Virus record (IMG/VR): IMGVR_UViG_2889049205_000001
Span: 64,001-128,000 of that record
From: a virus
Lineage: Duplodnaviria > Caudoviricetes
Length of the DNA: 64,000 nt
Reading direction: 5' to 3' (one strand)
The translations under genes and the position numbers were made by a program. Positions 5,374 through 39,545 of this stretch are shown in pieces. The notes below the pieces were generated by a model. That model did not search any database. It was not told the DNA's origin and saw only the letters and a program-made list of their open reading frames with translations. The number at the start of each line of letters is the position of its first letter. Position 1 is the first letter of the stretch.

Positions 5374-5830
5374 CGTTGTCCCCCTTCCAATCAAGCCGTA
5401 CATAGACTTGCCAGAACTCTATTCTTCCCGTGTCGCCACGGAGCGGGTCCGGCACACTAACGTAGAGCTTTTCGGTAATGGTCGCTGGCTTCTCGCCATC
5501 CCATTCCACTTCCAAGATCAAGTCTCCCGGCTGCGGCGCTACGTCGTGCTCCATGTAATACTTGTAGGTCGTGGCGGCAATATTCCCGAGCGGTGAAACT
5601 CGTCTGGCGCCCGGCAAAGTTTCAGGCACTACGCTGACTTTTCGCCGGGTCAGGCAGCTTCGGATGGACACCTTGTAGGTGGTGCCGAAACATTTCGGGC
5701 AATCCGCCATAGGCTCCCCGCTGCGCTCCGAATAGCAATCGCACCGGAACCGCTTGTCTTGCCGCACATAGACAACCTTGTGGCCGTACTTCTCCAGGAT
5801 GTCTTTGATGTCGGCCCGAAGATCACGCAT
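5348..5830 (-). CDS. Neck/head-closure protein with Zn motif
   Basis: RCDC...CPKCFGT motif, GRIEFW near the C-terminus, located in the head-tail joining region. Confidence 0.55.
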   Translation of the reverse strand: MRDLRADIKDILEKYGHKVVYVRQDKRFRCDCYSERSGEPMADCPKCFGTTYKVSIRSCLTRRKVSVVPETLPGARRVSPLGNIAATTYKYYMEHDVAPQPGDLILEVEWDGEKPATITEKLYVSVPDPLRGDTGRIEFWQVYVRLDWKGDNDDATLTEH

Positions 5831-6603
5831 TATTCAAACGCTCGACTTTCGGGGCTTCCAGCTGCGGTGCGGAAGTTGGCGGAAACAGGTGCTGCATACC
5901 CTCTGCGATTACGGCCAAGCATCGCATCTTGCCAGAACTTGAGCTCACCGGAAAGATCAGATAATGCGTCTTCCACCATTGTGAGCGGGTCAGAATTGCC
6001 GGAACCGCCGCCGGTACCCGACCCTGAGCTTGCGCTCTCTTGAACCGTCAAATCGCCGAGCGTAACCATTCCAGACGTCGAGGCAGTTGATGTTGGACCT
6101 CCCGTAGATGCATCGCTGTTTAGAATCCGCATCAGGAGCGAGGAGAGCAATGCTCTCGCTGCTTCATAAGCCACGTATTTTTGAGTCGGGAAGTAGGCGT
6201 TGTCCCGCTCCTCCAGTGCTTTATATCGTGAATTATTTACGTCCACGATTAGTCCCTGGAGCTGGTGTGCCTTCTGTCCGGCATTTCGAAGCGCCACGTA
6301 GATTTCCGACAGCTCAAAGCTTGTGTACAGCTTCTTGACTACGCTGCGAACTTCGAGTGGACCTGCGTAGAGCGGCCCATATTCGGTCGTAAAAGCAATC
6401 GCCATGGTTTCTTCAAGCAAATTTCCGGACACCGACTTGATCCCCTTATCAAGCACCAGCGTATAGCTGTGATTGAGTTTCAGCGGCTCGGTAATTTTCA
6501 AGATCACTCGACGTGGATTGTCGGGATCAATCGTTGGAACACCAATGCCGGTCTTCATTCCGAACTCTTTGGGCGGGATATATTCTTCATCCAATGGAAT
6601 CAT
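5830..6603 (-). CDS. Virion structural protein (Ig-like strand plus head-tail adaptor-like region)
   Basis: PLKLNHSYTLVLDKGIKSVSG..FTT Big_5-like segment; TLGDLTV adaptor-like motif. Confidence 0.5.
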   Translation of the reverse strand: MIPLDEEYIPPKEFGMKTGIGVPTIDPDNPRRVILKITEPLKLNHSYTLVLDKGIKSVSGNLLEETMAIAFTTEYGPLYAGPLEVRSVVKKLYTSFELSEIYVALRNAGQKAHQLQGLIVDVNNSRYKALEERDNAYFPTQKYVAYEAARALLSSLLMRILNSDASTGGPTSTASTSGMVTLGDLTVQESASSGSGTGGGSGNSDPLTMVEDALSDLSGELKFWQDAMLGRNRRGYAAPVSANFRTAAGSPESRAFE

Positions 6604-6605
6604 CG

Positions 6606-6878
6606 TTACATCACCGTCCTTTCATCGAAACATCCCGAATATGCGTTCATGAAGTCCATTTCACTTCTTCTTGAACTAACCTGAAAATGGGCAGAATTCA
6701 GCCTCAAATCAGCTACTGTAAGTGTAGCATGACCCACCTCAAGAACACCATTTGCATGGAAAAACCCAATCTCTGGCGTAGGTGGAAAATCGGCGCTAAT
6801 TGGGCTGTTTAGCTCATCATATGTCATAAATCCTAATAAAATCTGTTGATTTTGAGTGTATCCTCCCAAGTAGCTCAC
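6606..6878 (-). CDS. Small hypothetical protein, possibly truncated
   Basis: Strong RBS AAGGAGG before GTG; lower GC than neighbours; C-terminal half looks atypical. Confidence 0.35.
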   Translation of the reverse strand: MSYLGGYTQNQQILLGFMTYDELNSPISADFPPTPEIGFFHANGVLEVGHATLTVADLRLNSAHFQVSSRRSEMDFMNAYSGCFDERTVM

Positions 6879-6932
6879 GAAGCATCCTCCTTGCCGTTAT
6901 GTAATGCCCCTCGCCGAGACGAGAGGGTTTAT

Positions 6933-7811
6933 TTAATTCTTTTCATCGACCACGTAGAACATGTCTGGGGTCAGACTCTCTGGATCCACATCATCGCTGA
7001 ACTCGATTACGATTTGCGTGATGCCGGCGACCGGCAAATTCACGCTGCTTGCTGCAGGTGAGGTCTTCTCTACCGAAAATAACAGCCCTTGTGCCTGTGG
7101 CTGGTCGGCGAAGAACTGCTGCAGCGTTTCGATATGAGCCTCATTGGGGTCAAGGATATCGACTGGCGGTGCTTCCGGTTGCGATTGCTCTTCGCCACTG
7201 TACATGAACTGCACGGGTTTGGAGAACGCACTGCGGGCGCCATCACTACGAATGGTCCGGATCCGAGCATAGTGACCACCCTTGGCATAGAGAACATTTG
7301 GAAGGATACTTGTCTCAAAGATCCGCATCCGCTCCGTTGGCCATACGAGGACGTCGAAGGTGTTACTCTTTGAAATCTCGAGCTCGTAGTAGTAGGCGTC
7401 GGCTGCAGCTTCCCAAGAGAACTGTGGCCCTTTCCTGACCTCCGATAGATCCGTTGGCGACAACAACACAGGAGGCTTTATGCCCTTTGCGTCGGCCGTA
7501 TAGAACTCGACGGAATAGGTGTCCGGCATTGCCTTTCCGGTGATATCTTTAACGCCGTCCTTCCCGCCGATGATCTGCACCTGGTAATGCATCAGAGGGC
7601 TCATTGGGATTTTTGGCTGAATGGCAAGCACCCGGCCTTTGTAAATAAAATCGATAGGAAGGTTCTTCTGCTCATCTAGGTTGTACAGAATGACAGCACC
7701 CTCCGCCAATGTGTTCACATTGAGATCGACCATGAAGTAAACGTCGATGCGAGCATCGATCGCAACACCTTCAGCCATATGGTGGGGGTCGGATCGCATT
7801 ACGAAATTCAT
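6933..7811 (-). CDS. Ig-like/FN3-like domain virion protein
   Basis: Big_5-like N-terminus (IDVYF..DLN..TL; GVKDITG) and FSWEA..Y.LEIS FN3-like segment. Confidence 0.55.
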   Translation of the reverse strand: MNFVMRSDPHHMAEGVAIDARIDVYFMVDLNVNTLAEGAVILYNLDEQKNLPIDFIYKGRVLAIQPKIPMSPLMHYQVQIIGGKDGVKDITGKAMPDTYSVEFYTADAKGIKPPVLLSPTDLSEVRKGPQFSWEAAADAYYYELEISKSNTFDVLVWPTERMRIFETSILPNVLYAKGGHYARIRTIRSDGARSAFSKPVQFMYSGEEQSQPEAPPVDILDPNEAHIETLQQFFADQPQAQGLLFSVEKTSPAASSVNLPVAGITQIVIEFSDDVDPESLTPDMFYVVDEKN

Positions 7812-7813
7812 GT

Positions 7814-8122
7814 CTACCCCTCCGATTGATACTTGTAATTGACCGTTATGACGGCCTTGTCCACTGGCGCCTCGGTAAAGATGAGGTCTTTACCGGACAA
7901 GGTGTAATCTTTATCGAGCCCTTTGATCATATACATGCCGTCCTTGTAGACGGACTCGCTATTTTTCAATGGCTCCTGCGCCAATCGGTATGTTTTGTTG
8001 ACCCCGTCTCTTACGCCAATAGGCACTTCTTGAAATACCGTATTGGAACCAGAGAAGTCGGCCATCAAGCCGATCTTCATCCGGTATAAAGGAAATCTGG
8101 GGTGCTGCTGAACATGTGCCAC
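7814..8122 (-). CDS. Small structural protein
   Basis: EVPIGVRDGVNKTY module also present in 10411..12486. Confidence 0.5.
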   Translation of the reverse strand: MAHVQQHPRFPLYRMKIGLMADFSGSNTVFQEVPIGVRDGVNKTYRLAQEPLKNSESVYKDGMYMIKGLDKDYTLSGKDLIFTEAPVDKAVITVNYKYQSEG

Positions 8123-8135
8123 GCCAATCCCCTCC

Positions 8136-8648
8136 TCACTTCCACATTAAGCAGAAATCGTACACGGTCGGCCGAGTTGTCCCTGTGTAGAGGCACTGGA
8201 CCTTCAGCTGTACGAACTTGCTTGCTGTAGTAAGATAAATAGGCTTGTCTGCCTTTACTTCGTTCCATGAACCGCTTGTGGAATGGCGGTAAAAGAACTT
8301 TACGGTCGAGCCGAAATCCGGATCCTCTTCCATGTTGGATTGGATGTACAGCTCGTCCGTGGTTGCCGGCAGTTCCAAGAGGGGCGTGATCCACGAGTCC
8401 TGATTGATCGAGAAGCTCAGCGTGCTCCGGACTGCATTACTCGATGGATCACGATTACTATCATCCGTGAAACCTTCACAGAAATAGTATTTGTATGGCG
8501 ATACCAACAGCAACATGTCATAGCGCTCCAGCGTGGTTTTGAGCTTGATTGCCTCCGAGATGTTGGCCTGCATGGTATTCAAGTGAAAATCATGCAGGAC
8601 TTGACCATCAAGGAATGCGATGCGCTTCATGTAGTTTGGTGTTGCCAT
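8136..8648 (-). CDS. Putative baseplate/tail-associated protein
   Basis: Good RBS, located in the structural operon. Confidence 0.45.
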   Translation of the reverse strand: MATPNYMKRIAFLDGQVLHDFHLNTMQANISEAIKLKTTLERYDMLLLVSPYKYYFCEGFTDDSNRDPSSNAVRSTLSFSINQDSWITPLLELPATTDELYIQSNMEEDPDFGSTVKFFYRHSTSGSWNEVKADKPIYLTTASKFVQLKVQCLYTGTTRPTVYDFCLMWK

Positions 8649-8661
8649 ATTATCACCGCCC

Positions 8662-10389
8662 TTAGTACGTTACAGACCAGGTAATCCGCATGCCGGTGTT
8701 CTTGTCTTTCGTTACAGGACCGATGCCACTGATGTTGAACATGTCGCCATCGAGCTGATCCGTGAACATTCCCACCGTATAGATTTCGTGCGTTTCGTTC
8801 AGCCAGCTGTATTTCACCGCAACGACGTCGCTTGGAACCAAACTTGTATTGAAGGAAACCTGCTTGCCGTCCGAAGAGATCGTGTAATGCGTATCCTTCG
8901 TCAGCACAGTCCCATTGCGTCTCACCTCGACGATGAAGTTGCCAGAGAGGTCTTTGGTAATAGCATGCTTCAGCCCGTAAGAAGAGACGCCCGCCGCAAT
9001 GGTCAACAGTTCGTTTGGTTCTTCTTGAACCACAGGCCCAGGAACGCCTTTCGGGAAATCTGCCACGTACTGAACCGTCGTTCCGGAGTTGATTCGGTAT
9101 TCAACCGTGATCTGCCCAGGAGTTTCAACAGGTACGCCCTGCGTCGGAGCAGAGCTGAACTGCAAGATGCCTTGCGTCGGGTTCAGCAACCATACGTCGC
9201 CTTTACCGATTTCAAGACCTTTGGTCGCCGAATCGATCTTGTAGCTTGTCACAGTGTGATCAAGCGCTTCGTGGCGAATGGCAACCAGTTCAAGAACCGG
9301 GCCTTCAGCAAGTCCGTATACCAGATGGTCGTTGTTCAGCTGCTCTTGGTACTTGATCTCGATCGCAGCATTCAGTGCCGGGACAGCCGTCAGCTTCACT
9401 GTGCCCGCTGTTGCATCCACGATGCTTGCGGCGATGTCCGTACCGTCCACTTTCACGCTGACCAGTTTGAGCACCTTGTTGGTGTTCGCCAGATCAAACG
9501 TATCTTTAGCGGCGTCTCCGATGTCGTTTTGCGTTTTTTCAACGAAAGCGATCGGCTTGGTCGGAAGCACCTGGATCTCCGCTTCGCCTTTGGATACGGC
9601 AGCCGGATATTGAACCAGCTGACGGAAGCCAGTGAACTCGCCCTCCAGAACTTTGCGGAGCTTGTCGCCAGTGGCGAATTCTACAGGCTTGCCAGAAGGA
9701 TGGGTCGCAGGTTTACCGCCGATGCCCATAAAGCCCAGGGAATACCGGATCTTGTAGCTGTAGCTCACTTCGACAGCAGACTTCGCAGTTGCGAAGAATA
9801 CTTTGCCCGTTCTGTGGTCGATCTTGTAGGTTTTGTCAGCGTCCGAAGGAACCGCACCCCGTTTATACGCAACGCCGGCAACCTTAACGACTTCGGTGCC
9901 ATTTACGATCTCAACGTAAGCATTGACCGTGCGGCGGAAATCAATCTTCACTTGGTTCAGCGGCGCCACTTTGAAGACGATTTTTCCTTCGTCCGCATTG
10001 CCCACGTACACGTCTTGCTCCAAGACCAGATCCACACCGTCTACGGTGACTTTTTTGAGTTCCGTGATCATCGTGACGTCTGGAATTGCGATAACAGTAT
10101 CCGCATTCGTAGCGCCTTTGTTGACCTCGTAGGAGCCCTCTGCCTCCCGCTGCCTGGAGAGGTTGAACACATATTGCCCGTCGCCATTAGCGGCGAGCAG
10201 CGTGTCCCCCTTATCGACTTGCTGAGCTTTCACGGTTTTGGCCGGGTCGCTCATGACTTTGCCGACAATTTCATTGGCCGTCAGGACGACGAGGTTCTTT
10301 TTCTCCTTGGAAAACGTAACCTCGCCCTTCTTGTTGTAAAGCTCCAGCTTTACTCGGCCTCTTGCTTGCAGTTGCATTTGATCGTTCAT
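8662..10389 (-). CDS. Tail collar/fibre-attachment-like protein with inserted beta-sandwich repeats
   Basis: GRVKLELY..KNLVV, MGIGG and VTK..MRITWSV framework shared with the upstream paralog. Confidence 0.55.
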   Translation of the reverse strand: MNDQMQLQARGRVKLELYNKKGEVTFSKEKKNLVVLTANEIVGKVMSDPAKTVKAQQVDKGDTLLAANGDGQYVFNLSRQREAEGSYEVNKGATNADTVIAIPDVTMITELKKVTVDGVDLVLEQDVYVGNADEGKIVFKVAPLNQVKIDFRRTVNAYVEIVNGTEVVKVAGVAYKRGAVPSDADKTYKIDHRTGKVFFATAKSAVEVSYSYKIRYSLGFMGIGGKPATHPSGKPVEFATGDKLRKVLEGEFTGFRQLVQYPAAVSKGEAEIQVLPTKPIAFVEKTQNDIGDAAKDTFDLANTNKVLKLVSVKVDGTDIAASIVDATAGTVKLTAVPALNAAIEIKYQEQLNNDHLVYGLAEGPVLELVAIRHEALDHTVTSYKIDSATKGLEIGKGDVWLLNPTQGILQFSSAPTQGVPVETPGQITVEYRINSGTTVQYVADFPKGVPGPVVQEEPNELLTIAAGVSSYGLKHAITKDLSGNFIVEVRRNGTVLTKDTHYTISSDGKQVSFNTSLVPSDVVAVKYSWLNETHEIYTVGMFTDQLDGDMFNISGIGPVTKDKNTGMRITWSVTY

Positions 10390-10410
10390 TTCCGTTTCCC
10401 TCCTTCTGGA

Positions 10411-12486
10411 TTAGTATCCGCCGTAGAATGGATCGCCGTCTTTGTTGAGCAGCGTGATCGTCCATGTTACCCGAATACCGGTGGATACTTCTTTGCGAGT
10501 TTCGCCCACTCTTACGATCGAGAATGCGTCAACTGGATAGTTGCTGTATCCGTCGATTTTATCGTCGGTCCGAGGGCCGTCGGCCAGAATCATCTCACGA
10601 ATTGTGATGTTATGGTTTGGCACGTTTTCAGGGAACTCGGCGATGAAGCTGATGGTCCCCTTATCCAGCTGATACCACGGGTATGCAATGCCGCTCTTCG
10701 GCTTCTCGATAATTTGACGAGTATATCCGGTGGCTACGCCTGGAATCTCGGCCGAAACATAGAGCACTTCGAAGGAAGTAAAGATCGTCGAGCCGTCCGT
10801 GTCCACTGGGCTGAGGTATAGCTTATTGCCGTCAACCAGGAACTTACCAGGGCCGAACTCGGCTTTGGTGGCCGCAAGTGTGAGCACTTTCTTGTCCGCT
10901 GCTTGGCCGTTGACCTTGACGGACGTAGCTGCTTTCACGGGGAGATCCAGCGTTTTTGCTGCTTCGGACCACTCGTAGCTGACTTTCAGCGTTTCGCCGG
11001 CAACTGGTGCGGTTTTCAGCGTAAACGTTCCAGCGTTCAGATCTGGCGTCACATCCGCAGAGGCAATGAGTGTTTCCGTGGAGTCCGCTGCCACTTTCGT
11101 TACGGCAAGCGTGCCTGCCACGAGCGGCTTCTTGGCCAGCTTGAACAGTTTGTTCGTGCCATCGATAGTACCGACAGGGACTTCAGCTGTAATCGGATGC
11201 GTCACTTTGTCGGCTGTCAGCAACGATGCGATCTTCTGGATGTACTGCTCACCAGTCACATTGTAGGTGATCAGTAGGCCGCTCAGCGTGCGGTTGAAGT
11301 ACAATTTGCCTGATTGGGCATCAGCAAAGTATTTTCCTTCAGCCACTTCAGCCTTGGTCTCTACCCGATCCATCGCATCACCGTCATACTCCACGACCAA
11401 GCTCTCCGGAACGACCGGGAAGCTGATCAGCTGCGTGGTGAAAGGCGCCACGTTTGTGGTGCTGTAGACCGTAGGTGTGTCGAAGGTTTTCGTGAAGTTC
11501 TCGAGCTCGTGGATCAAGCCGTTCATCTCTTTCGTCAGTGCGTCGAAATGGATGCCGGCAATGGCAACTTCCGGATTCACGATTGCGGCGTCAGCTGCGG
11601 AGAACTTGATTTCGATCTTGTGCGCCAACGTGTGGTCCAGACCGGAGAGCTCGAAGCTTTTCTCGACAGGAACAACTGCGGCAGCGTCATAGCATTCGAT
11701 TTCATTTTTCAGCACGTTATCCACATAGATTTCAATTCGCCCGCCTTTATCGGACGAAAGATAATCCACCTTGAAATTGCTGATTTTTTCCTCGAATGCA
11801 ATCTTGTCGCCGATCGCCGGGGACACCTTATTCTCGCCGCTTGTAGCCCAGCTGCCTGTATAGGTCAGACGATCATCGGCCAAATCGACTTCGTAGTTCT
11901 TGCCGTCGCCGATACCGATGAACATGTTCGTGCTGGAGCTGTAGATTTCCGAGGTGATTGGAATCGCACCCGACACCGGCGTCTTCACAATGCGGAAGGC
12001 CTTCTTGCCGACCTGTGTGGAAGTTTCTTCTTTCAGGAACAGTGTCTTCGGACGGTAAGCATAGGAGCTCTTGAAGTCCTTGTCTTCAACCGCTTTCCAG
12101 AAGATGTTCGGGGCGTATTTCAGCTGATCTACCCCGTCTACCACTTCGGAGATTGCATCGATTCCGATATGATAGATTTTGGATTCGTCGTTAGGAATCC
12201 GTACTTTATAGAGCGTCCGCTCTGGGTCGCCAGAGAACGCACGAAGCAGAATTTCTTCGGCGCCGTTTACGACCAAGTTGGCTTGATCTGCAAGAAGGCC
12301 AAGAACGTTGCCGCTTCCATCGATCTTCTCGATTCGAATGTGCCCTTTCGGAGCAAACTCGAACACGTCATGCAAACCGCCGGATTTCGGCTTTTCCATG
12401 CGGGCTTTCAAGTCGGCCGCAAACTTTTGCTTTTTCGGGCCATCTGGCAGGAGCGCCAGAAGCTTCTCGATTGTTTGCAATTTCAT
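10411..12486 (-). CDS. Tail collar/fibre-attachment-like protein, paralog of 8662..10389
   Basis: KGHIRIE..NLVVNG, IGIGDG, IREMIL and RK..GIRVTWTI framework; contains a beta-rich insert. Confidence 0.55.
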   Translation of the reverse strand: MKLQTIEKLLALLPDGPKKQKFAADLKARMEKPKSGGLHDVFEFAPKGHIRIEKIDGSGNVLGLLADQANLVVNGAEEILLRAFSGDPERTLYKVRIPNDESKIYHIGIDAISEVVDGVDQLKYAPNIFWKAVEDKDFKSSYAYRPKTLFLKEETSTQVGKKAFRIVKTPVSGAIPITSEIYSSSTNMFIGIGDGKNYEVDLADDRLTYTGSWATSGENKVSPAIGDKIAFEEKISNFKVDYLSSDKGGRIEIYVDNVLKNEIECYDAAAVVPVEKSFELSGLDHTLAHKIEIKFSAADAAIVNPEVAIAGIHFDALTKEMNGLIHELENFTKTFDTPTVYSTTNVAPFTTQLISFPVVPESLVVEYDGDAMDRVETKAEVAEGKYFADAQSGKLYFNRTLSGLLITYNVTGEQYIQKIASLLTADKVTHPITAEVPVGTIDGTNKLFKLAKKPLVAGTLAVTKVAADSTETLIASADVTPDLNAGTFTLKTAPVAGETLKVSYEWSEAAKTLDLPVKAATSVKVNGQAADKKVLTLAATKAEFGPGKFLVDGNKLYLSPVDTDGSTIFTSFEVLYVSAEIPGVATGYTRQIIEKPKSGIAYPWYQLDKGTISFIAEFPENVPNHNITIREMILADGPRTDDKIDGYSNYPVDAFSIVRVGETRKEVSTGIRVTWTITLLNKDGDPFYGGY

Positions 12487-12498
12487 TTTTGCTCACTC

Positions 12499-14571
12499 CT
12501 AACCCTTCAAAGTATTGGTCCCCAAAATGAAGTGGCCAATTGGCCATCCTGCTGAGATATCACCCAGGGCGTACAGAACCTTCTCACGGCCGTCCAATTT
12601 GAACTGGTCCTTCAGGCTCGTCGTCACGGATATATCACGGCTGGTCTTGAGGTGTAGATTGTATTTCGCCCATAAATGAGGCTTATACTGTGGGGAAACA
12701 AGATCATTGGCTGATACATGGAACAGTTCGGAGCGGGAAGCTCCCAGATCCGGGCTGATGCCCAATCTTTCGCTGGCCAATATGCGATAATACTCCTTCA
12801 CCAATCCCCGAAGGTCATCGGATGTCGCAGCTACATCAGCGTAATGCACGACAAAGTTTTCATGCTCTGTTTCTTGTGGGGTAGAACGATTGGTAAGCTG
12901 TTCCGCCAGCAATACGTCCATATAGTCAGAAAGCCTTTCGGCTGCAGACGGCGCAAGTTTCGTAGAGTCGCTCGCAATAAGGTCCGTGTCTTCTTGAACA
13001 GAGCTTGACGTCTTGAATCGGCGGGCAGTCTGCTCTTTACTACCGATCGAGAGCTGTTCGCTTGGTGTAAACGGCATTTCCTTGTATCGGAGCGTGAACC
13101 GCTCACCCATTTCCGCAAGGGCATCTACATATTCGTAGAAATGATAGTTCACGAGTGCATGCCGCTTTGAGGTCATATGATTCAAGAATTTATCCATCAG
13201 TCCGATTTCATAGTCGTACCGGAAATCCTTGTCTCCAAGAATCAGATTCCAAGCCAGATCGTACAGGAACATCCGCTTATTAACGTCGTCCCCTTCGACC
13301 ACATCATACTCGATGATTCCATCGGAACCACTGATATAGTCGGCGTCATCGATCAGATTGATCATAACCTCTGCTATTCGCTGATCCATGAGCATATATG
13401 GCATGTACGCCTCCTGGAACATCATCCTCATAAAGAAGAACAGTTCTTCAGAAGGTGTAACGCCCAACGCTTCTTGTAGATGGCTGGCGAACACAGACAG
13501 CGTTTCTTTGGTCTCTTGTACGATACGATAATTTACATCTTCTCTGAAGATAGGCTCTGTCAATAATTTTACCGTACTGTTTGCATGGAAAACAAAGTTA
13601 TCGTGAGGCATTAGCGTGTACGCTGCCCGCAAAACTTCGGCTTTAACATCCAAAGCGTAGCGACCTTCTAAATAAATCGCCTTATTTTCGTCATTTTCTA
13701 AGAGCACTTCGATATTCGAAGCTTTCACAATGTTTTCCAGGTACTCTTCGAGGAAAATCTCCACAACCATGGAGACGATGTCGCTCGGCTTTTGCTGGAA
13801 TCGGTCGTAAGCCCGGTACATCTTCATGATGTCAGCAAATTCCCGCTTATCCGCCAAGAAATCCTCTTTGAAACTGGAGTAGAGGCTCTTGCCGATAAAA
13901 TCAAAGGAGCTCTTTAACTGTGCGACCAGCGATTCGTTTACCACATTTGACCGATCAGATTCGCTATCGAACGTCTCGGAGATCAGGTGCTCCAGCAGCT
14001 CGTCTGGCTCCAGGCTCGGGATAAACCGAACAAATTCGGAGTGACTTACCGCCTGATAAGCATCGCTGGTCATAAGCTGCAGGAACGCTTCGATCTTTTC
14101 ATCATCGATCATTTCGATAATGTTCAACAGATCATAGAGCATTTCATAGACCACAATGTGGTTAGCTTCATCTCGAGCCTCGGAATAAACCCAATCACTC
14201 TTCCACCCCTCAAGGGATATGCCCCGGATCCGGTATTGATTGAAGGCTTGAACCCCCACATAATCCTCATGTCTTGTTGAAAGCCAGTAGGATTCTGATA
14301 TCCCGGTATCAGGTTCACTCAGAACAGCTTTGATTCTATACCGCTGACCCTCGATGTCCGTTGCATCGATGCCGGTGCTGATTGATTTCTGGTGAATGGT
14401 GGACACCGTGTTCAGACCATTATTGATTGCCCGAATACGGTATGTCCCCGGTTCACCTGGAAACGAAACATGCTTGAAGATCCGATTATTGTGCTGCTCT
14501 TTGAAATCGACAGGGAAAGGCACGGCTTTAGCCATTGCATATGCCAGCTCTGAAGTCCTTGACTCAAGCAT
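12499..14571 (-). CDS. Hypothetical structural-operon protein (690 aa)
   Basis: Long ORF colinear with the late operon; no recognisable motif. Confidence 0.55.
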   Translation of the reverse strand: MLESRTSELAYAMAKAVPFPVDFKEQHNNRIFKHVSFPGEPGTYRIRAINNGLNTVSTIHQKSISTGIDATDIEGQRYRIKAVLSEPDTGISESYWLSTRHEDYVGVQAFNQYRIRGISLEGWKSDWVYSEARDEANHIVVYEMLYDLLNIIEMIDDEKIEAFLQLMTSDAYQAVSHSEFVRFIPSLEPDELLEHLISETFDSESDRSNVVNESLVAQLKSSFDFIGKSLYSSFKEDFLADKREFADIMKMYRAYDRFQQKPSDIVSMVVEIFLEEYLENIVKASNIEVLLENDENKAIYLEGRYALDVKAEVLRAAYTLMPHDNFVFHANSTVKLLTEPIFREDVNYRIVQETKETLSVFASHLQEALGVTPSEELFFFMRMMFQEAYMPYMLMDQRIAEVMINLIDDADYISGSDGIIEYDVVEGDDVNKRMFLYDLAWNLILGDKDFRYDYEIGLMDKFLNHMTSKRHALVNYHFYEYVDALAEMGERFTLRYKEMPFTPSEQLSIGSKEQTARRFKTSSSVQEDTDLIASDSTKLAPSAAERLSDYMDVLLAEQLTNRSTPQETEHENFVVHYADVAATSDDLRGLVKEYYRILASERLGISPDLGASRSELFHVSANDLVSPQYKPHLWAKYNLHLKTSRDISVTTSLKDQFKLDGREKVLYALGDISAGWPIGHFILGTNTLKG

Positions 14572-14594
14572 ATCAATCCCTGCCTTTCCTCGGA

Positions 14595-15167
14595 TTATTT
14601 CTCAGCAGCTGCTTTGCCCTTGCCTGCAGCTTTGCCGGTGTCCTTGGTAGCTTCAGAAGCCTTGTCAGCCTCTTGAGCTTTGGCAGCATCTTCTGCAGCC
14701 TGTGCGGCTTCAGCAGCCTTGGCGGCGGCCTCAGCGTCTTCAGCTGCAGCCTTATCGGCGTCATCGGTATTCACAGCAGCGGCTACAGAAAACAGGTCGG
14801 CCTGCCCTTCTGCTTGTGCCGTTACGACGTTGGCCGAATTAGCGTTTACCGCATCGGCACGGTCCAAGGCAAACACAGGTGTGTGCTTATCCCAAGTGCC
14901 GTCCAATTTCTTGCGGTCCTTCTCTTTTCCGCTGAACATGCCATCGAACTTGGCTTTCCAAGCGTCGATGAACGTCTGCGGGATATCCCCCTCAAACAAC
15001 ACCAAAGCTGGAGGCTGGCAACAGACGGCATGCGTGATCTTTGTCAGATCCGTATTACCGTCAACGTTGATTGTTTGCACAGGCTTCTCCAGCGTCAGAT
15101 AAGTGTTGGTGAGGGGATCGTAAAAACTCTGTTTTCGTGGCGCAAGGCCAACCTTGATCTCAGGCAT
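14595..15167 (-). CDS. Capsid-downstream protein with Ala/Lys/Glu-rich tail
   Basis: RBS GGAGGG; low-complexity C-terminus. Confidence 0.6.
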   Translation of the reverse strand: MPEIKVGLAPRKQSFYDPLTNTYLTLEKPVQTINVDGNTDLTKITHAVCCQPPALVLFEGDIPQTFIDAWKAKFDGMFSGKEKDRKKLDGTWDKHTPVFALDRADAVNANSANVVTAQAEGQADLFSVAAAVNTDDADKAAAEDAEAAAKAAEAAQAAEDAAKAQEADKASEATKDTGKAAGKGKAAAEK

Positions 15168-15229
15168 CTACGATCCCTCCCGTTATTTTTTGTTGGTTTG
15201 AAGTGCGATCTGTACCGGTACCGTCTCGA

Positions 15230-16315
15230 TTAAGAGACGATACGGATACGATCTGGAGCTGGCCATGTTTTCTCGAACGCCAGGTTGCGGGCAACCGCCA
15301 CGGCCTTACCTTCGTTGAGAACGCCTACGCCGTAGCGCTCTTTGACCTTGATCGTTTGAATATCACGCATCGGATCGTCGAACTGTTCCGTAGAAAGCGG
15401 GTCCTTGACCAGCAGAATGCCGATATTGGACTTGTCCACCACGTACATGTCGAATTTCTTCGTCTCGTAGTTGAACGGTGCGAACGGCGTGAAGTTCAGA
15501 TTGATCGAGAACGGAATCCGACCGGATACTTGTTCTGGATTAATCTGCAGGTTCGTGATTTGGCTGCCGCCAAGTGCAGCGTAGGACAGCGACTGCATGA
15601 TGTCGTTCTTGAAGAACACGCTCCAAGTCAGAGGATGCATCAGGATGTCCGACGGCGTGAAGCCGTTACCCATTACCGCAATGAACATGTCGATCAGATC
15701 TTCAGTGCTCATCGTGTTGTTCAGGTTGCCCGCTTCATCGTATCCGTTTGTACCTGCTTCGTGGTACTTCTGACGAATGTCATTATCGAATACAACGTGG
15801 CCGTGCTTGGAGAACTGATTGAAGATTTTCTCTTCCTTCAGTCGGGCCATCGCTTCGCCGGCTTTGCGAACCAAGATGCCGATTACGTCCCACTGGGAAT
15901 CGTTGATCATTTCGTCGGTTACACGAACGACCATACCGGACTTGCCGACCTTCACCTCTTGAGTACGGTGGAGTTGGAAGTCCACAGTTTCTTCAAGGTA
16001 GGATTGGCTTTCGCCGATATCGTGGGCCCGCATTGCGCCGATCGAAGGGAACTCAATGGAGCGACCTTCCGTCAGGCGAACCGTCTGCAGCAATTGGGAG
16101 CCGAGGTAAAGCGGCTCTGCTGCTTCCCGCATCATGCCGGTCACGACACGAGGGATGAGGATGCTTGCATCCTGCGTGGTCAGGGCCTCTTTGACAGAAA
16201 CCAAATCGCTTTTCGGGATTTGCGTCCAGTCTTCGTTCAGGTCCAGCTGACGCTGCATACGTTTAAGGACGCTCTGGGACGCCTCGGAAAGTTGCATTTC
16301 GTTTACGTTAAACAT
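15230..16315 (-). CDS. Major capsid protein (HK97-like)
   Basis: 361 aa following the scaffold and decoration genes; ILIP.VV, V.VTDEMI.DS, ILMHP..W and KERYGVG motifs. Confidence 0.85.
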   Translation of the reverse strand: MFNVNEMQLSEASQSVLKRMQRQLDLNEDWTQIPKSDLVSVKEALTTQDASILIPRVVTGMMREAAEPLYLGSQLLQTVRLTEGRSIEFPSIGAMRAHDIGESQSYLEETVDFQLHRTQEVKVGKSGMVVRVTDEMINDSQWDVIGILVRKAGEAMARLKEEKIFNQFSKHGHVVFDNDIRQKYHEAGTNGYDEAGNLNNTMSTEDLIDMFIAVMGNGFTPSDILMHPLTWSVFFKNDIMQSLSYAALGGSQITNLQINPEQVSGRIPFSINLNFTPFAPFNYETKKFDMYVVDKSNIGILLVKDPLSTEQFDDPMRDIQTIKVKERYGVGVLNEGKAVAVARNLAFEKTWPAPDRIRIVS

Positions 16316-16344
16316 TGTCTGTGCCCTCCTTTTATGAGCTGCGA

Positions 16345-17613
16345 TTATTTATGAAGCAAGATGCGAACTGCGCCGATGGAACCTTTGAAGTCCCAGCCAG
16401 TAGGGATACCAGGAATTTGACCAGTTGCTTTGTACGTTGCCGTCACTGCAATTGGCGCCGAACCCGCTGTGTTATCGACATTCACAACCACCAAGCCGAG
16501 CTCGTAGTTGATGTACACGATGTGACTTGGCTTCGCCGTGTCTGTATCAAGCGTCGTATTGCCGGCTTTGATAACGGCCGATCCTTCGATGGCTGGCAGA
16601 TGCAGCAAGCGGAAGTCGTGTCGGCCGGATTGGCCAGCGTTAACCATGCCGATTACTTCGTTCGTATACGACACTTCGATGTTGGCGCCGTTCGTTAGGC
16701 CAGGGATGCCCTTCGGCTGGTATTTGCCAGTGGCAATGTCCATGTTGTTGTACGTGCGCTCATACGGGTATCCAGGGAAGCCGTCTTGAGTGCCGATGTC
16801 TTCCGGACGGAAGCCGCTGTTGTTGATCCACTTGTCGTCGGAACGCATGTCCTCTTGCGACCATTGGACCCATTTCAGCCATCCAGTCGGAGCGGATCCG
16901 TCTTTAATTGGCGTTTCAACAGCCCAGATTTGGCCGAAGGATTGCTCGCCAAGACGGCTCATTTCCGTCAGTGCGACTTTCAATTCGGCAAGATCGGCGG
17001 CATCTGCAATGTCTTCACGAAGCTTGTCGAAATCGGCTTTGATGACACGGCCAACGGTGTCGGACATGACGTAATCGCCAGGTTGTGCCGGACGAGTTGG
17101 ATCTGCGTCATAGAAGGAGCCCCACTCGACTTCTTCCGCATCCGCTTTGAGCGGGATATACGGCAGTTCGATGTAGATTTCGTTTTCGACCGTAGGCTGC
17201 ATGCCGTTGAAGCCGTCAACGAATTGCTCGTACAAATTGCCATAAGCTACGCCGATCGGGCGGTTTGCTTGGCGAGTGTGTTGCGCTCCGGTTTTACCGG
17301 TTTCCGTCACGTCTACGCCGCCGTTTGCCAGCGTGATGACCGGAACCCATGCGTTCGTGTCGAAGTCTTTGACTTGACCCGGTTTGTTCGGATTGTCGAA
17401 TACGTCCGTCGCCGGTGCGATGACACGGCCTTTCGGAATTACGACGTAACCGTCGCCGCCGAAGTGGTAGCGAAACAGGCGCTTGAGGCGAGGGTCGATC
17501 AGGAATTTTTCACCTGGGCTGTCGTGCGTACCCGCCTGCAGCTTCGTATTGGAGCGGAAGTATTGGTCTTTCTGGTCCCGGATTGGGTTGCCATTACCAT
17601 GAAACAATGCCAT
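16345..17613 (-). CDS. Capsid decoration/minor head protein
   Basis: Lies between scaffold and major capsid; VVIPKGRVI and PIGVA motifs. Confidence 0.55.
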   Translation of the reverse strand: MALFHGNGNPIRDQKDQYFRSNTKLQAGTHDSPGEKFLIDPRLKRLFRYHFGGDGYVVIPKGRVIAPATDVFDNPNKPGQVKDFDTNAWVPVITLANGGVDVTETGKTGAQHTRQANRPIGVAYGNLYEQFVDGFNGMQPTVENEIYIELPYIPLKADAEEVEWGSFYDADPTRPAQPGDYVMSDTVGRVIKADFDKLREDIADAADLAELKVALTEMSRLGEQSFGQIWAVETPIKDGSAPTGWLKWVQWSQEDMRSDDKWINNSGFRPEDIGTQDGFPGYPYERTYNNMDIATGKYQPKGIPGLTNGANIEVSYTNEVIGMVNAGQSGRHDFRLLHLPAIEGSAVIKAGNTTLDTDTAKPSHIVYINYELGLVVVNVDNTAGSAPIAVTATYKATGQIPGIPTGWDFKGSIGAVRILLHK

Positions 17614-29349: not shown

Positions 29350-29426
<77 letters not shown>

Positions 29427-29430
29427 ATAC

Positions 29431-29506
29431 GGGCAGCGTGATCGGACTCGAACCGCACAACAATCCCCTTCCACAGGAGATGCTTTTCCGTTAAGCTAAC
29501 GCTGCA
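29431..29506 (-). pseudogene. Degenerate tRNA-like element (His/Pro ambiguous)
   Basis: Acceptor stem GCAGCGT/ACGCTGC and GGTTCGAGTCC T-arm present; irregular anticodon loop, no CCA. Confidence 0.55.
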
Positions 29507-29508
29507 TA

Positions 29509-29584
29509 TGGCTGACCGACCAGGGTTCGAACCTGGGACCCACGGATTAACAGTCCGTTGCTCTACCTGCTGAGCTATCGATCA
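29509..29584 (-). tRNA. tRNA-Asn(GTT)
   Basis: Anticodon arm ACGGA-CTGTTAA-TCCGT, encoded CCA. Confidence 0.93.
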
Positions 29585-29588
29585 AAAT

Positions 29589-29662
29589 TGGCACCGGCTG
29601 AAGGATTCGAACCAACGCTGACGGTTTTGGAGACCGCTGTTCTACCATTGAACTAAGCCGAT
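29589..29662 (-). tRNA. tRNA-Trp(CCA)
   Basis: Anticodon arm GCGGT-CTCCAAA-ACCGT, encoded CCA. Confidence 0.92.
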
Positions 29663-29666
29663 ATGT

Positions 29667-29743
29667 TGGTTGCAGAGGAGGGATTCGAACCCCCGACCTT
29701 CTGGGCATGAGCCAGACGAGCTACCATGCTGCTCTACTCCGCT
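29667..29743 (-). tRNA. tRNA-Met(CAT), initiator-like
   Basis: Anticodon arm TCTGG-CTCATGC-CCAGA; 1:72 mismatch; encoded CCA. Confidence 0.88.
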
Positions 29744-34262: not shown

Positions 34263-34324
34263 GGACGAAACGCACCCTGTATCAAGGGGGTGCGTCCATG
34301 GGTGCTACCCATGCTGATGAGTCC
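34263..34324 (+). ncRNA. Hammerhead ribozyme, type II
   Basis: GGAC-GAAA-CGCACCC..GGGTGCG-TC-CATGGGT..ACCCATG-CTGATGA-GTCC; all core nucleotides and three stems intact; cleavage after C34296. Confidence 0.9.
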
Positions 34325-34388
34325 AGTAAATGCTCACCCATGTAAGACGTGACCTATATGGCACGCTATGGGATAGAAAGGATCTACC

Positions 34389-34955: not shown

Positions 34956-35079
34956 TTGGCAGGGTTCGATATGGGACTCGCTGATTACAGGGTGAAATGA
35001 TATATCCCTGCTATTGGCATCCCCTCCCCCTTGTGCCGGTCGATCCGCATGGGGGCAGTACACAGAATCGGCCTAGCTG

Positions 35080-35109
35080 GAACACGGATCTTTAAGCCGT
35101 GTTCTTTTT
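35080..35109 (+). terminator. Rho-independent terminator
   Basis: GAACACGG/CCGTGTTC stem followed by TTTTT. Confidence 0.65.
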
Positions 35110-35224
35110 GTGTTCCGGCGAACTGCAAGAAGAACGGGCCGTGTCCTGTGGGTGTACGTGACCCAGGGCATTGGCAACCACGTATCCCTCTCCTGTTTAA
35201 GGGCTGATCACCCCAGGAGTTGTA

Positions 35225-35274
35225 GTCCGTGCATGGCGAGCTTTAACGAGACAGTGACTGTCATCCCTCTCCGA
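35225..35274 (+). repeat. Left arm of the inverted repeat flanking the RNA polymerase gene
   Basis: Complementary to 39046-39105. Confidence 0.85.
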
Positions 35275-35361
35275 CGCAATACCGCAATACCCGCTTCACC
35301 TGTCGCCCGTCCCTTTGTCCGCAAGTCCAAAACCAATTTACTCTGAGGAGAGATATCTATC

Positions 35362-38300
35362 ATGACAACTACTAACCGTAACGCTAAGAAAGCACACATG
35401 GAAACAATGAAAGCTCAACAAGCCAGAAAGTCGATGCTCCGTAACGCTATCAAGTCGCATAAGCAATCGATGAAGGCCGCTCGCCCTGTGGCAGCTGACA
35501 ACCCATTGGCAACCAACCAAGGCATCATCAGCGCAATGCAGGTATTCGGTATTGAGCAAGGCATCATCAATCGCATCCTCTTCGGTATTGGCGAGGGTAT
35601 GGGCCTGATCGTGCAGCTTCGTGATCCTGCTCTTGTGGCCGGCCTTACTGATGCTGATCGTGCTGAGATCGAGCGCTTCGTGAATGCTCACGACAAACTG
35701 CCTGCAGTGGTTCGTAAGCCGAAGCGGGTATCGGTTCAAGTGTCGAAAGCAAGCGTCCACAAGATGCGTTACGATCTGGACGGCATGGATATCTTCTCCA
35801 CGCTGAACTACTCGGATCCAGGCAGCACACAAGCTGATACTGGCTACCAAGTGATCCAGGAGAATCAACTCTCTGAGCTGCTGGCTTCTGCGCCGGTCGA
35901 AGTGGTCTTCACTCGCAATGTTGGTGGCGAGATCGTAGAATCCCCACGCCGCCTCTCCCTGATGCGCTGGGTGCATGTCGTGGACATGTATGTATCCCTG
36001 CCTGAAGATGAGATCGATGCAGAAACGCAAGAGCTGCTGACTATGCAGGAGCTGATGATGCGTAACGGCTACCTCTTCGCAAATGAAGATGGTGAGATCG
36101 TGCGTGCCAACTACCTGTATCAATCGGCATCTCAAGCACGTCAGCTGCAAGGCATCTTCTTGTCAGAAGAATGCCCACATACACCAGCCGAAGTGCTGAT
36201 GATGCTGGGTCATGACTTCCTGGCATACTCGAAACGTAAGGCAGCTGGTGTCTATGAATTGGACATCACGAAGATGCTGAAGCGTTTCGGTCTGGCTGGT
36301 ACTTCCTCCATTCCTTCCCGCACGATCGACATCGGTCAAGATACGGTGAATCTGGAGAATGGCGAGTACATGATCGTTGGTGGCCGTCACACGATGATGG
36401 TGATCGAGGATCGATATGCGGTGGTGAAGCGTGGCCTGTACAAGGTCATGGATCCGAAAACCCGCTCCATGAAGACCCTCGATGCTGCAGAGATCAATCA
36501 AACCATGGCTGTCGGTGATGGCCTGGTCTTCTGCGACGAGGAAGTATACGCAGCACTCTTGGCTGAGTTCGGCCAGGAGTCTGATGCTTGGCAGATCCGC
36601 CTCACTCCGTTCACCAAAGGCCTGATGGTCTTTGTTCCGGATATGAGAGCGATCGTTGGGGCCAATGGCAAACCACTGTATGACGCAAACATCGTTGCTA
36701 CGAAGTCCGCTGTCAAAGGCGACTATCGTGCGATCGCTAAGGACTTCAAGATCCAACTCCGTGTTGCCCTGTTCAATAAATCCATGGGCCAAACGAAACC
36801 GTACACGCTGCTGCCGTATCAAATGACTCATGGCACATCGGTGACGGCCAAGGATCTGATCAACACCTTGGATGTGCATCTGAACGGTGTATTGGATGAT
36901 ATGAATGATCCACATCGTATGGCCACACGTCTGGGCTTGTATTCGATTCAAGACATGGGCAACGACATGACACTTGAGGAGATCGAAGCAGCTGAGAAGA
37001 AAGCCATCTTCAATACTCATGGTCTGTTCCTGCACCACGCTCCGTTCACAGCACATGATGCCATGATGCGTCGCTGGTCGATTGAGCTGATGCATGAGCA
37101 GCTGGAGAAATGGCAGTATGGCAGCATCCCAGTGGAAGGCCACTATCGCTTCATGGTTCAAGATCCATATGCGATCCTGAATGCAGGCATCACTCAGATT
37201 CGTGACGATGAGGGCAATCTTCTGGTTCCGGAGAATGAGGGTCTTGAAGCGAACACGATCTTCATCAAAGGTCGTGGCGAGAACGGCAAGCTCGAGGACA
37301 TCACCGGCCAACATGTAGCACTGGGTCGTAATCCAATGGTTGGCAAGGAGATGCAAATCACGAAGGTGGCAGCGAGCACTCGATATGAGGCTGCCGTGAA
37401 GAAGGGTGGATTCCGTAACCTGCTCGTAATGAGTGTGCATGACTTCTGCACATTCGCTATGGGCGGCGCTGATAATGATGGGGACACCGGCTTGACCATT
37501 ACCGAGAACGCAATCGTCCGCAGCGTCATGAAGAAACCAGGCATTCCCGTGCTTGATCTTCACATGAAATACGACGCTGATGGACGCCTCTCTGGTTTTG
37601 GAAGCGGGTGCCCTTGGAGCGGCGACACGGGTGAGGTTCCATCTCTGGAAGCACCACATGTTGCACAACGTGATTTTATCATTCAATTCACAGCGGATCA
37701 ATACACAGCTGAGTTCCGTTCTGCGATCCATGAGCTTTCCAAAGAGTTCGTCATCCGTACACTGGAGCCGAACAAGATTGGATACATGACCAATATCGCT
37801 ACGAAGCTGGCTGATGCTGTGCGCAAGATCGGCTATATGATCGCCGGCAACCTGGATCAATACGGCAACAAGATGAATGCACCTCGTAATGCTTCGGCCG
37901 CCGCTGTACTCAAGAGCGAGATCGAGCAATATGAGAGCTACATCGAATTGCTGCGCCTTTGCCAAGGATGGGAGATCGACCGTGCGAAACACGGCGGTGC
38001 TTACATGGAGCAGCTGGCTGAGGAGCTGCGCTTCCTGAAGGATCCATCCCTTGCCACATTCGCTAAGTACAAACTGAAGAACGGTCGCACGGTATGGACC
38101 AATCCAGTATGGCTTGCTGAAGCAAAAGGCAAGAACGGCTTCAATACAAACTCGGTTCTATCTCAGGTGCATGCCTATGTGAAGAACTGGAAAGCTACGC
38201 AGCTGGATGCACGCCTCGATGAGATCATGAATGACGTTGACACGTATAACGTGCTGACCGATATGGCGCAAGGTATTGCAATCGAACCAGCTGTGCAGAA

Positions 38301-39045
38301 AGCACTTGAAGATGCAATCCGTCCGATCAAAGGCACATATGGTGCAGCGATCGCCAGCGCATACGATAGGTTCAAAGCTGCTCGTGATGAAGCTCTTGCC
38401 CAATGCAATGGTGACGCTGCTGTGGCGGAGGAACTGATCGAGCTGCTTGAGAAGGAGCGGGCTCTGGATGTTGCATCTGCAGTTGATGCTGCTCAGCAAT
38501 CCATGACTGCTCTGGAAGAAGGATTCGATATCGTTCACATCGGATATGTTGCTTACCACATGACCTATGCTAATCGTCGCACCAATAAGCGTATCGACGA
38601 TGTCACTGGTGAAGTGGTCGAGTACCAATCCGGCATCGGCTTCCCATGGACCGCAGCCAAGCGTCAATTCCTGAATGCAGCACGCTATGTGCAATTCGGA
38701 AACACTGGCCGCACCGTCTTGAACGAAATCAAGGCAGGATCCTTTAACATGGGCACGGTGGTGCATACCGCTAAGGATGCAGAACGCATGCTTGATTCTG
38801 TTCGCAACTTCGGAAAGGTTATCGTGAAGTATGAGCGTAATCTGCTTACGAAGAACTCTGCATATAACATTTATGCAATGAGCGCCAATGGAACCATGAC
38901 ACAATGCGGCATCCTGTATGATTCTGCTCTTCGCTTCCTCACTGGTGCTCCTGCTTATGAGGTTACGGTAGAAGATGCAACATACAACGGTGGTCACTCC
39001 GTAAACATGAAAGTGATCGCTCGCCAACCAATCGAGCTTAACTAA
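35362..39045 (+). CDS. YonO-like single-subunit RNA polymerase (cellular RdRP-like double-psi-barrel family)
   Basis: SASQAR, KRFGL..TS, GDG, WQIR...KG, GRNP, catalytic GGADNDGD, IG..TN and IDRAKHG in RdRP/YonO order. Confidence 0.88.
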   Translation: MTTTNRNAKKAHMETMKAQQARKSMLRNAIKSHKQSMKAARPVAADNPLATNQGIISAMQVFGIEQGIINRILFGIGEGMGLIVQLRDPALVAGLTDADRAEIERFVNAHDKLPAVVRKPKRVSVQVSKASVHKMRYDLDGMDIFSTLNYSDPGSTQADTGYQVIQENQLSELLASAPVEVVFTRNVGGEIVESPRRLSLMRWVHVVDMYVSLPEDEIDAETQELLTMQELMMRNGYLFANEDGEIVRANYLYQSASQARQLQGIFLSEECPHTPAEVLMMLGHDFLAYSKRKAAGVYELDITKMLKRFGLAGTSSIPSRTIDIGQDTVNLENGEYMIVGGRHTMMVIEDRYAVVKRGLYKVMDPKTRSMKTLDAAEINQTMAVGDGLVFCDEEVYAALLAEFGQESDAWQIRLTPFTKGLMVFVPDMRAIVGANGKPLYDANIVATKSAVKGDYRAIAKDFKIQLRVALFNKSMGQTKPYTLLPYQMTHGTSVTAKDLINTLDVHLNGVLDDMNDPHRMATRLGLYSIQDMGNDMTLEEIEAAEKKAIFNTHGLFLHHAPFTAHDAMMRRWSIELMHEQLEKWQYGSIPVEGHYRFMVQDPYAILNAGITQIRDDEGNLLVPENEGLEANTIFIKGRGENGKLEDITGQHVALGRNPMVGKEMQITKVAASTRYEAAVKKGGFRNLLVMSVHDFCTFAMGGADNDGDTGLTITENAIVRSVMKKPGIPVLDLHMKYDADGRLSGFGSGCPWSGDTGEVPSLEAPHVAQRDFIIQFTADQYTAEFRSAIHELSKEFVIRTLEPNKIGYMTNIATKLADAVRKIGYMIAGNLDQYGNKMNAPRNASAAAVLKSEIEQYESYIELLRLCQGWEIDRAKHGGAYMEQLAEELRFLKDPSLATFAKYKLKNGRTVWTNPVWLAEAKGKNGFNTNSVLSQVHAYVKNWKATQLDARLDEIMNDVDTYNVLTDMAQGIAIEPAVQKALEDAIRPIKGTYGAAIASAYDRFKAARDEALAQCNGDAAVAEELIELLEKERALDVASAVDAAQQSMTALEEGFDIVHIGYVAYHMTYANRRTNKRIDDVTGEVVEYQSGIGFPWTAAKRQFLNAARYVQFGNTGRTVLNEIKAGSFNMGTVVHTAKDAERMLDSVRNFGKVIVKYERNLLTKNSAYNIYAMSANGTMTQCGILYDSALRFLTGAPAYEVTVEDATYNGGHSVNMKVIARQPIELN

Positions 39046-39105
39046 TCGGATAGGAGATGGTGATGCAACAGTCACTGTCTCTTTAGAGTTCGTCATGCAC
39101 AGGAC
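39046..39105 (+). repeat. Right arm of the inverted repeat, starting 1 nt after the polymerase stop
   Basis: 33-nt core pairs with 35229-35261 (29 Watson-Crick, 3 G-U, 1 mismatch). Confidence 0.85.
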
Positions 39106-39545
39106 AAATCAGATTCACACACCCTTCGGGTTAACCACATGCAGCCGGCACCATCGTGCTTGCACCATGCTGTGCGGCCCCACCCATTTGCTACCCCGCT
39201 CCTCCCTCCGTATCATGACCACGCATCATTCCCCGATGCACGCACCACAGGCCTGTCGGCCTCATTCATGATGATGCAACACGACCATGAAAGCCACCAG
39301 GATATCGTCTCGCACCAGAACAGCAAACGTGGGGTAACTCAGCAATGTTATCTGCATAAAGCAGTCCATGCCCTCCCAGGGCGTGGCTGCAGGTTCACCA
39401 GTGGCATGTGTGTTGTGTGATGGCCGTGAAACGAGCAAACCTGGCGAAAGAATTTCCAGTTGCGTATAGCATGCTTATGTTATGATGGTTCTATTCGTCT
39501 TTCTTGATTATATGTTATGAGACTGTCGTGCGAGGTGCGTTATCA

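Follow-up and report, generated by a model that had tools for sequence, protein, structure and literature searches.

Conserved complementary arms around the RNA polymerase gene of a jumbo phage could form a long-range RNA processing stalk

In a phage genome deposited as IMG/VR virus record IMGVR_UViG_2889049205_000001, the gene for a single-subunit RNA polymerase is flanked by two complementary arms which, in the sense RNA, probably pair into a long-range stalk closing a loop of 3.8 kb. Homologous genes of five other phages are flanked by arms that have diverged in sequence and remained complementary to each other. The stretch analysed here (hereafter, the window) comprises 64,000 nt, bases 64001-128000 of contig C3 in a three-contig genome, and all positions are counted from its first nucleotide. 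By analogy with the stalks from which bacterial ribosomal RNAs (rRNAs) are processed, the helix may serve to excise the polymerase message with the help of host RNase III.

The inverted repeat flanking the polymerase gene

A repeat search placed the core of the two arms at 35229-35261 and 39068-39100, with 29 of 33 nt (88%) being complementary, and gapped alignment lengthened the pairing to 35225-35272 versus 39053-39105, adding GTCC/GGAC with a 1-nt bulge on the outer side and ..CATC-CC-TCTCC on the inner side. The alignment score was 54, compared with a maximum of 27-29 for shuffled flanks. When scored without a G-U bias, the approximately 48 paired positions include 44 matches, three transitions of the G-U type, none of the A-C type, one transversion and a few bulges. 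The predicted energy of the sense duplex is -74.5 kcal/mol.

The left arm is located 90-137 nt 5' of the start codon of the polymerase gene, and the ribosome-binding site lies outside the arm. The right arm begins 8 nt past the stop codon (TAA at 39043-45), while weaker inner pairing starts from 39046, the first base after this codon. The polymerase gene is the sole long open reading frame (ORF) between the arms. Each arm carries the 11-bp palindrome ACAGT-N-ACTGT, which the nearest relative, L003, lacks in its left arm. An initial annotation of this DNA had described the same 33-nt core, its outward and inward extensions, the inner pairing that follows the stop codon, the isolated position of the ORF in the loop, the formation of sense-strand G-U pairs by all three transitions and the presence of the palindrome in both arms, and each of these observations was reproduced at the same coordinates.

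The arm pair is unique in the 7.5-Mb genome and represents the highest-scoring non-palindromic inverted repeat of the whole 229-kb contig C3. No Rfam family was found at the arms. A promoter or terminator of the dispersed type could be ruled out, as the phage contains no further copy of the arm core.

Conservation and covariation of the arms among related phages

To compare the loci of homologous polymerase genes, each upstream flank was aligned to the reverse complement of the downstream flank in 16 metagenomic or genomic lineages and in the cultured phage 0305phi8-36 (17 in total). Application of RNAduplex to the whole 700-800-nt flanks, as well as a permissive G-U-aware alignment, produced meaningless end-to-end pairings, and stricter scoring was used instead. 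Significant flanking repeats were revealed at five further phages, namely L003, whose polymerase shares 77% protein identity with that of the window, and L005, L007, L008 and L009 (37-40% identity), with arm scores of 34-51 versus 27-31 for shuffled flanks. The expectation of the initial annotation that covarying arms would be found around homologous genes was thus borne out for five other phages; the lineages that lack arms are considered below. Exact-pattern scans of viral contigs for the arm cores returned the known contigs and chance matches only. Four of these matches were the starts of unrelated ORFs (ATG GCG AGC TTT AAC GAG), and one matching contig had no polymerase gene.

In all six stalk-bearing phages the left arm follows an upstream gene coding for a protein of 165-190 aa. 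A core sequence, which reads TGGCGAGCT in the window and TGGCGGGGCT or GTGCGGGACT in other phages, allows the arms of the six phages to be aligned; elsewhere they are diverged, and in 30 of the 37 aligned columns the pairs have changed on both sides. The consensus helix predicted by RNAalifold contains 24 contiguous pairs with an energy of -62.3 kcal/mol; in control calculations with swapped partners, in which a left arm was combined with the right arm of another phage, the mean was -20 and the best value -35 kcal/mol. Even when the window is compared with L003, the 33-nt core shows three substitutions that are accompanied by a complementary change in the opposite arm.

The right arm starts 8-144 nt after the polymerase stop codon across the six phages. 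In all of them the ribosome-binding site and the start codon remain outside the helix, 23-103 nt on the loop side of the left arm, so that translation of the excised unit would be possible. The content of the loop varies: in L007 and L008 the loop is 4.2-4.3 kb long and carries two genes, since a gene coding for 143-145 aa (5495-5932 in L007 and 5481-5912 in L008) is inserted between the left arm and the polymerase gene, and the arms are still complementary. The encoded protein belongs to no Pfam family. Its homologues were found in L005, L010, L014, L016, L036 and L038, where their genes adjoin the polymerase gene, mostly upstream of it; in L005 the gene is located downstream of the polymerase gene, outside the loop. 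No homologue was detected in C3 or L003. This protein may be a polymerase accessory factor.

Strand asymmetry of the mismatches

Transition mismatches in the arms are not distributed equally between the two strands. Over the six phages, 17 mismatches are of the G-U type and only three are of the A-C type on the sense strand when scored in a G-U-blind manner (binomial p 0.0026); if wobbles shared by descent are counted once, the numbers are about 13 and three, respectively (p about 0.02). In five of the six phages the stability of the sense duplex exceeds that of the antisense one by 9.6-17.9 kcal/mol, and the two are equal in L009. For the consensus helix, the RNAalifold energy on the antisense strand is only -48.4 kcal/mol. 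All six phages have a G-U pair at a distance of 1-2 bp from the conserved GCG core.

Pairing of the sense RNA is likely to be under selection. Neither the G-U asymmetry nor its persistence is expected of protein-binding sites, crossover sites or gene conversion, and this conclusion is also based on the constant orientation of the gene, the absence of recombinase families among those recorded for its neighbours, the lack of a target duplication, and the absence of the palindrome from the left arm of L003. The initial annotation had favoured an RNA duplex modestly, and this part of it is strengthened by the covarying arms and the 17:3 bias; its further suggestions of a circularised message and of a terminal panhandle for an RNA-dependent RNA polymerase (RdRP) gained no support.

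A putative RNase III processing stalk

Processing stalks of this kind are textbook knowledge for ribosomal RNA. In bacterial 16S and 23S rRNA precursors, as in the phage, complementary stretches of about 50 nt located kilobases apart enclose a whole functional RNA, and the helix is imperfect, with wobbles and bulges. The 16S stalk of the host itself is an imperfect repeat with arms of about 50 nt and a score of 43 on the scale on which the window stalk reaches 54. There is no sequence similarity between it and the phage arms, and mimicry of the host stalk was therefore rejected. In contrast to rRNA stalks, the predicted phage stalk encloses a translated mRNA of 3.7 kb (4.2-4.3 kb in L007 and L008) rather than an untranslated rRNA assembled into a particle.

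A near-perfect RNA duplex is expected to be cut in a cell possessing RNase III. The chromosome sequenced alongside C3 contains one match to the RNase III family PF14622 (140 bits), while C3 contains none. In the window, the flanks are able to form 44 Watson-Crick and three G-U pairs, and across the six phages the pairing is maintained by compensatory changes in the sense of transcription. Given a near-perfect duplex of 45-75 bp, an RNase III in the host and the established behaviour of this enzyme, the stalk would be expected to be cut.

We propose, with a probability of about 0.5, that the arms form an rRNA-style stalk whose cleavage by RNase III excises the polymerase message and leaves its ends paired. 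In this scheme, the arms would pair in the sense RNA into a stalk of about 50 bp joining the 5' and 3' flanks and closing the ribosome-binding site, the ORF and the stop codon in the loop. Provided that both arms are present on one transcript, host RNase III would cut the duplex and free the polymerase mRNA from a longer early plus-strand transcript, which would also be processed by an upstream hammerhead ribozyme. Once cut out, the mRNA would keep its 5' and 3' ends base-paired to each other, and a local hairpin 5' of the left arm could cap the new 3' end of the upstream fragment. As a net effect, the polymerase message would acquire its own stability uncoupled from that of its neighbours, and it could be either stabilised or destabilised. 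Excision or stabilisation by RNase III had been suggested in the initial annotation, and by analogy with the similar 16S stalk, and with one RNase III in the host, it appears to be the most plausible mechanism.

Parts of this scheme have precedents in other systems. Early mRNAs of phage T7, including the message of its RNA polymerase gene 1, are separated at RNase III sites, and the early RNA of Bacillus phage SP82 is likewise processed by RNase III. As proposed here, host RNase III cuts a polycistronic early transcript of the phage in these cases, and the T7 polymerase message becomes separate with structured ends; however, the T7 and SP82 sites are local intergenic hairpins, whereas here a single helix would be formed from both flanks of the gene. 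In Bacillus subtilis, RNase III cuts long-range intramolecular mRNA duplexes in which U-G wobbles are enriched in the distal box (PMC11780869). These targets resemble the phage stalk in that distant segments of a Firmicute mRNA pair with U-G wobbles, but the phage stalk bridges 3.8-4.3 kb, has complete cistrons between its arms and is conserved with covariation across phages. Pairing of the 5' and 3' untranslated regions within one bacterial mRNA has been described for icaR of Staphylococcus aureus, where the 3' untranslated region covers the Shine-Dalgarno sequence and RNase III is involved (PMC3868564). Such pairing is also known for the mRNA of B. subtilis hbs (PMC5737220), and like icaR it resembles the phage stalk in joining the two untranslated regions of one message, with effects on ribonuclease access. 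Both are short genes with short helices, and unlike the site in icaR, that of the six phages is never covered by the helix.

Several observations weigh against excision from a longer transcript. A terminator-like hairpin is located 120 nt 5' of the left arm, and the hairpin directly adjoining this arm has, in L007 and L008, a U-run behind it that extends into the arm. Because such hairpins and U-runs precede or overlap the left arm, transcripts from upstream might stop before reaching it, and a promoter scan, of little informative value here, predicted no sigma-A-like promoter between the upstream hairpins and the left arm. It is also uncertain, on kinetic grounds, whether an mRNA under translation would fold over a distance of 3.8 kb. 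No stalk was detectable in 10 of the 16 lineages, and no flanking repeat was present at gp99 of the cultured phage 0305phi8-36. In the stalk-less lineages, neither wider flanks of 3.5 kb nor nhmmer profiles built from the left and the right arms of the six phages revealed any arms. Since most lineages lack it, the stalk is dispensable for this type of polymerase gene. The signal comes from only six sequences, which share ancestry. On a polymerase tree obtained from a short "quick" search, the stalk-bearing phages are scattered, which fits the stalk being an old feature that would have been lost several times.

The evidence of covariation and strand bias would be identical if the RNA stalk were real and had a role other than excision by RNase III. 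It could shield the ends of the message from RNase J1 and 3' exonucleases without being cut, or it could act as a translation-sensitive switch, in which the helix is opened by ribosomes translating a short upstream ORF that starts in the left arm or terminating beside the right arm. We regard roles of this kind as rather unlikely. Shielding has a precedent in B. subtilis hbs, where an interaction of the 5' and 3' untranslated regions controls the access of ribonucleases (PMC5737220), but a near-perfect duplex of 45-75 bp is unlikely to escape RNase III where the enzyme is present. For the switch, an ATG follows a purine-rich stretch in the left arm in five of the six phages, and in the window the inner pairing starts directly after the stop codon. 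However, the upstream ORFs vary in frame, length (10-64 codons) and sequence, the changes between the window and L003 are mostly non-synonymous, and the right arm follows the stop codon at no constant spacing. For the same reasons, namely the differing frames, lengths and sequences and the mostly non-synonymous substitutions, a conserved leader peptide in the left arm was rejected.

Possible role of the arms as DNA sites

An inverted repeat around a single gene could also consist of DNA sites, such as crossover points of an inversion acting as an on/off switch, operators bridged by a looping repressor in a carrier state, or remnants of the terminal repeats of a captured cassette. The palindrome in each window arm would suit such a site. 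Moreover, the replicon forms part of a bacterial genome assembly and its relatives encode Alp7A/ParM-like segregation actins, which makes silencing of the polymerase in a plasmid-like state plausible. Nevertheless, we consider DNA sites improbable. The orientation of the polymerase gene relative to its neighbours is identical in 17 of the 17 lineages, and among the precomputed matches no Pfam family of recombinases or transposases was recorded for called genes within 6 kb at the loci fetched. As for a cassette, no direct repeat indicative of target duplication is present just outside the window arms, no transposase family was recorded at the loci, and the insertion site is not variable: the gene occupies the same syntenic place in lineages with and without arms. 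The palindrome is not conserved, and both the mismatch asymmetry and the persistent shared wobble are unexpected of DNA sites or gene conversion. Inversion or capture sites, the DNA-level alternative offered in the initial annotation, are disfavoured on these grounds.

The enclosed polymerase gene

The polymerase translation contains the metal-binding motif GGADNDGD, and the residues D704, D706, G707 and D708 are invariant across 23 polymerase homologues, nine of which are encoded on contigs of about 155-215 kb. Sixteen of the 23 family members match the Pfam RdRP family PF05183 (best E-value 2e-17), while the window protein itself has no Pfam match; its best matches in the PDB, to plant RDR2 and other RdRPs, are weak. 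Searches of a phage collection with the region (megablast) and with the polymerase protein (tblastn) gave no match, and gp99 of phage 0305phi8-36, annotated as PF05183-like, was reached via the family profile only. Enzymes of the RdRP/YonO type have been placed in this group of jumbo phages by Iyer et al. (PMC7824862). The PF05183 matches of the homologues, the invariant aspartates of the motif and the detection of gp99 by the profile make it reasonable, at the level of sequence comparison, to label the window gene as an RNA polymerase of the cellular RdRP/YonO type.

Since this family includes the cellular RdRPs of eukaryotes and the polymerase gene is the one gene always found in the loop, the stalk could be imagined as a cis-element by which the polymerase recognises its own message, either for autoregulation dependent on double-stranded RNA or for RNA-primed or RNA-templated synthesis, but this is very improbable, because YonO, the characterised phage member of the family, reportedly transcribes DNA rather than RNA templates, the stalk is missing from most phages that possess this polymerase, and the promoter-like small-hairpin motif found before downstream genes is unlike the arms.

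Replicon and host

Contig C3 is 228,841 bp long and has a G+C content of 50%, and the chromosome is 7.05 Mb in length with a G+C content of 55%. The ends of C3 consist of a 17,066-bp direct terminal repeat (C3 positions 1-17066 and 211772-228837, outside the window) with 99.94% identity, which reflects either a true terminal redundancy of great length, like that of 0305phi8-36, or overlapping assembly of a molecule that is circular or concatemeric. Genes for the large terminase, portal and tail sheath are present in the window, and the sheath has distant relatives, with 28-30% identity, in Moorella phage MTATph1 and Bacillus phage 0305phi8-36. The chromosome encodes Spo0A and RNase Y. Based on these structural genes, the terminal repeat and the host markers, C3 is a jumbo myophage of a spore-forming Firmicute, possibly carried as a plasmid-like prophage. 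Five clustered tRNA genes (Pro, Pro, Asn, Trp and Met) are located on the minus strand at 29350-29743, between the structural block and the early region.

Elements around the stalk

Several other elements were predicted upstream and downstream of the arms (Table 1).

Table 1. Positions of the stalk, the enclosed gene and neighbouring elements in the window
Feature	Position	Strand	Basis
Candidate type II hammerhead ribozyme, after the first ORF of about 50 aa on the plus strand	34263..34332	+	Rfam RF02276, 28.8 bits (below the gathering score of 37)
Terminator-like hairpin between the upstream 188-aa ORF and the left arm (8-bp stem, 9-nt loop, T5)	35080..35109	+	Read from sequence
Local hairpin CTCCTG ... 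CAGGAG directly 5' of the left arm	35190..35219	+	Cofold prediction
Left (5') arm of the long-range stalk	35225..35272	+	Repeat search, gapped alignment, duplex energies
RNA polymerase gene, 1227 aa, single-subunit two-barrel, YonO/cellular-RdRP type	35362..39045	+	Translation, homologues
Right (3') arm of the stalk	39053..39105	+	Repeat search, gapped alignment, duplex energies
ACCC-UUCG-GGGU tetraloop hairpin just outside the right arm	39121..39131	+	CCCTTCGGG motif
First copy of the small-hairpin motif N-GCC-TGTC-GGC-N' TCATTC	39250..39267	+	Repeated motif

The core of the hammerhead candidate in the window (CGAAAC / GUC / CUGAUGA) is intact, and at the same relative position L008 carries a type III hammerhead (4612-4666, plus strand) with a score of 49.4 bits, which is above the gathering score. 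These upstream hammerheads support the existence of a processed polycistronic early transcript of the plus strand upstream of the stalk. The T-run of the terminator-like hairpin is interrupted in L003. The local hairpin 5' of the left arm is predicted by cofolding at the same position in all six stalk-bearing phages, with differing sequences, and its block is 100% identical between the window and L003.

On the 3' side, the CCCTTCGGG motif occurs within 130 nt past the polymerase stop codon in nine lineages (the window, L003, L007-L011, L021 and L039), with or without a stalk. In the window and L003 the UUCG hairpin falls outside the helix; in L007-L009 it is found inside. This hairpin may signal termination or mark the 3' end. 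The small-hairpin motif is present in the window in five copies on the plus strand (starting at 39250, 46855, 48030, 56494 and 61214), compared with 0.15 expected, and its outer pair covaries among the copies. Three of the four downstream copies are located 20-50 nt 5' of a ribosome-binding site, and no such site follows the copy at 39250. The motif, which resembles the promoters with hairpins known from phage N4, is probably a promoter of the phage, a candidate for recognition by its polymerase, and would start a new transcription unit after the stalk.

Two further conserved elements were observed in the flanks. The blocks TGGGGTAACTCAGCAAT ... AATTTCCAGTT are located 3' of the right arm on the plus strand (about 39327-39470 in the window). 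As L003, L007, L008 and L009 also have them, five of the six stalk-bearing phages share these blocks, and none of the ten stalk-less loci searched contains them. This element matches no Rfam family, and its consensus fold (-9.7 kcal/mol, two covarying pairs) is not convincing. In the leader, 370-820 nt 5' of the polymerase gene, the block GGGTGAAATGATA(N3)CCCT (about 34990-35010 in the window, plus strand) is conserved in five of the six stalk-bearing phages: the window, L003, L005, L007 and L009.

Significance

No description of a conserved covarying helix closing a complete protein-coding message of 3.7-4.3 kb was found in the literature. The span of 3.8-4.3 kb, the enclosure of complete translated cistrons, the involvement of a phage polymerase gene and the conserved covariation set this case apart from the nearest known systems. 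The six natural variants, with differing arm sequences and two kinds of loop content, represent a ready set for work with compensatory mutations. Should the polymerase itself recognise the stalk, this would be a counterpart in bacterial viruses of the terminal panhandles of RNA-virus polymerases.

If the proposed processing stalk is real, phages of Firmicutes would use host RNase III and RNA pairing over kilobases so that the polymerase message is handled apart from the rest of an early operon, and the range of long-range mRNA pairing in bacteria would grow from hundreds of nucleotides to several kilobases. It would also add a control point to the switch from host to phage transcription in the poorly studied jumbo phages related to 0305phi8-36 that possess YonO-type polymerases.

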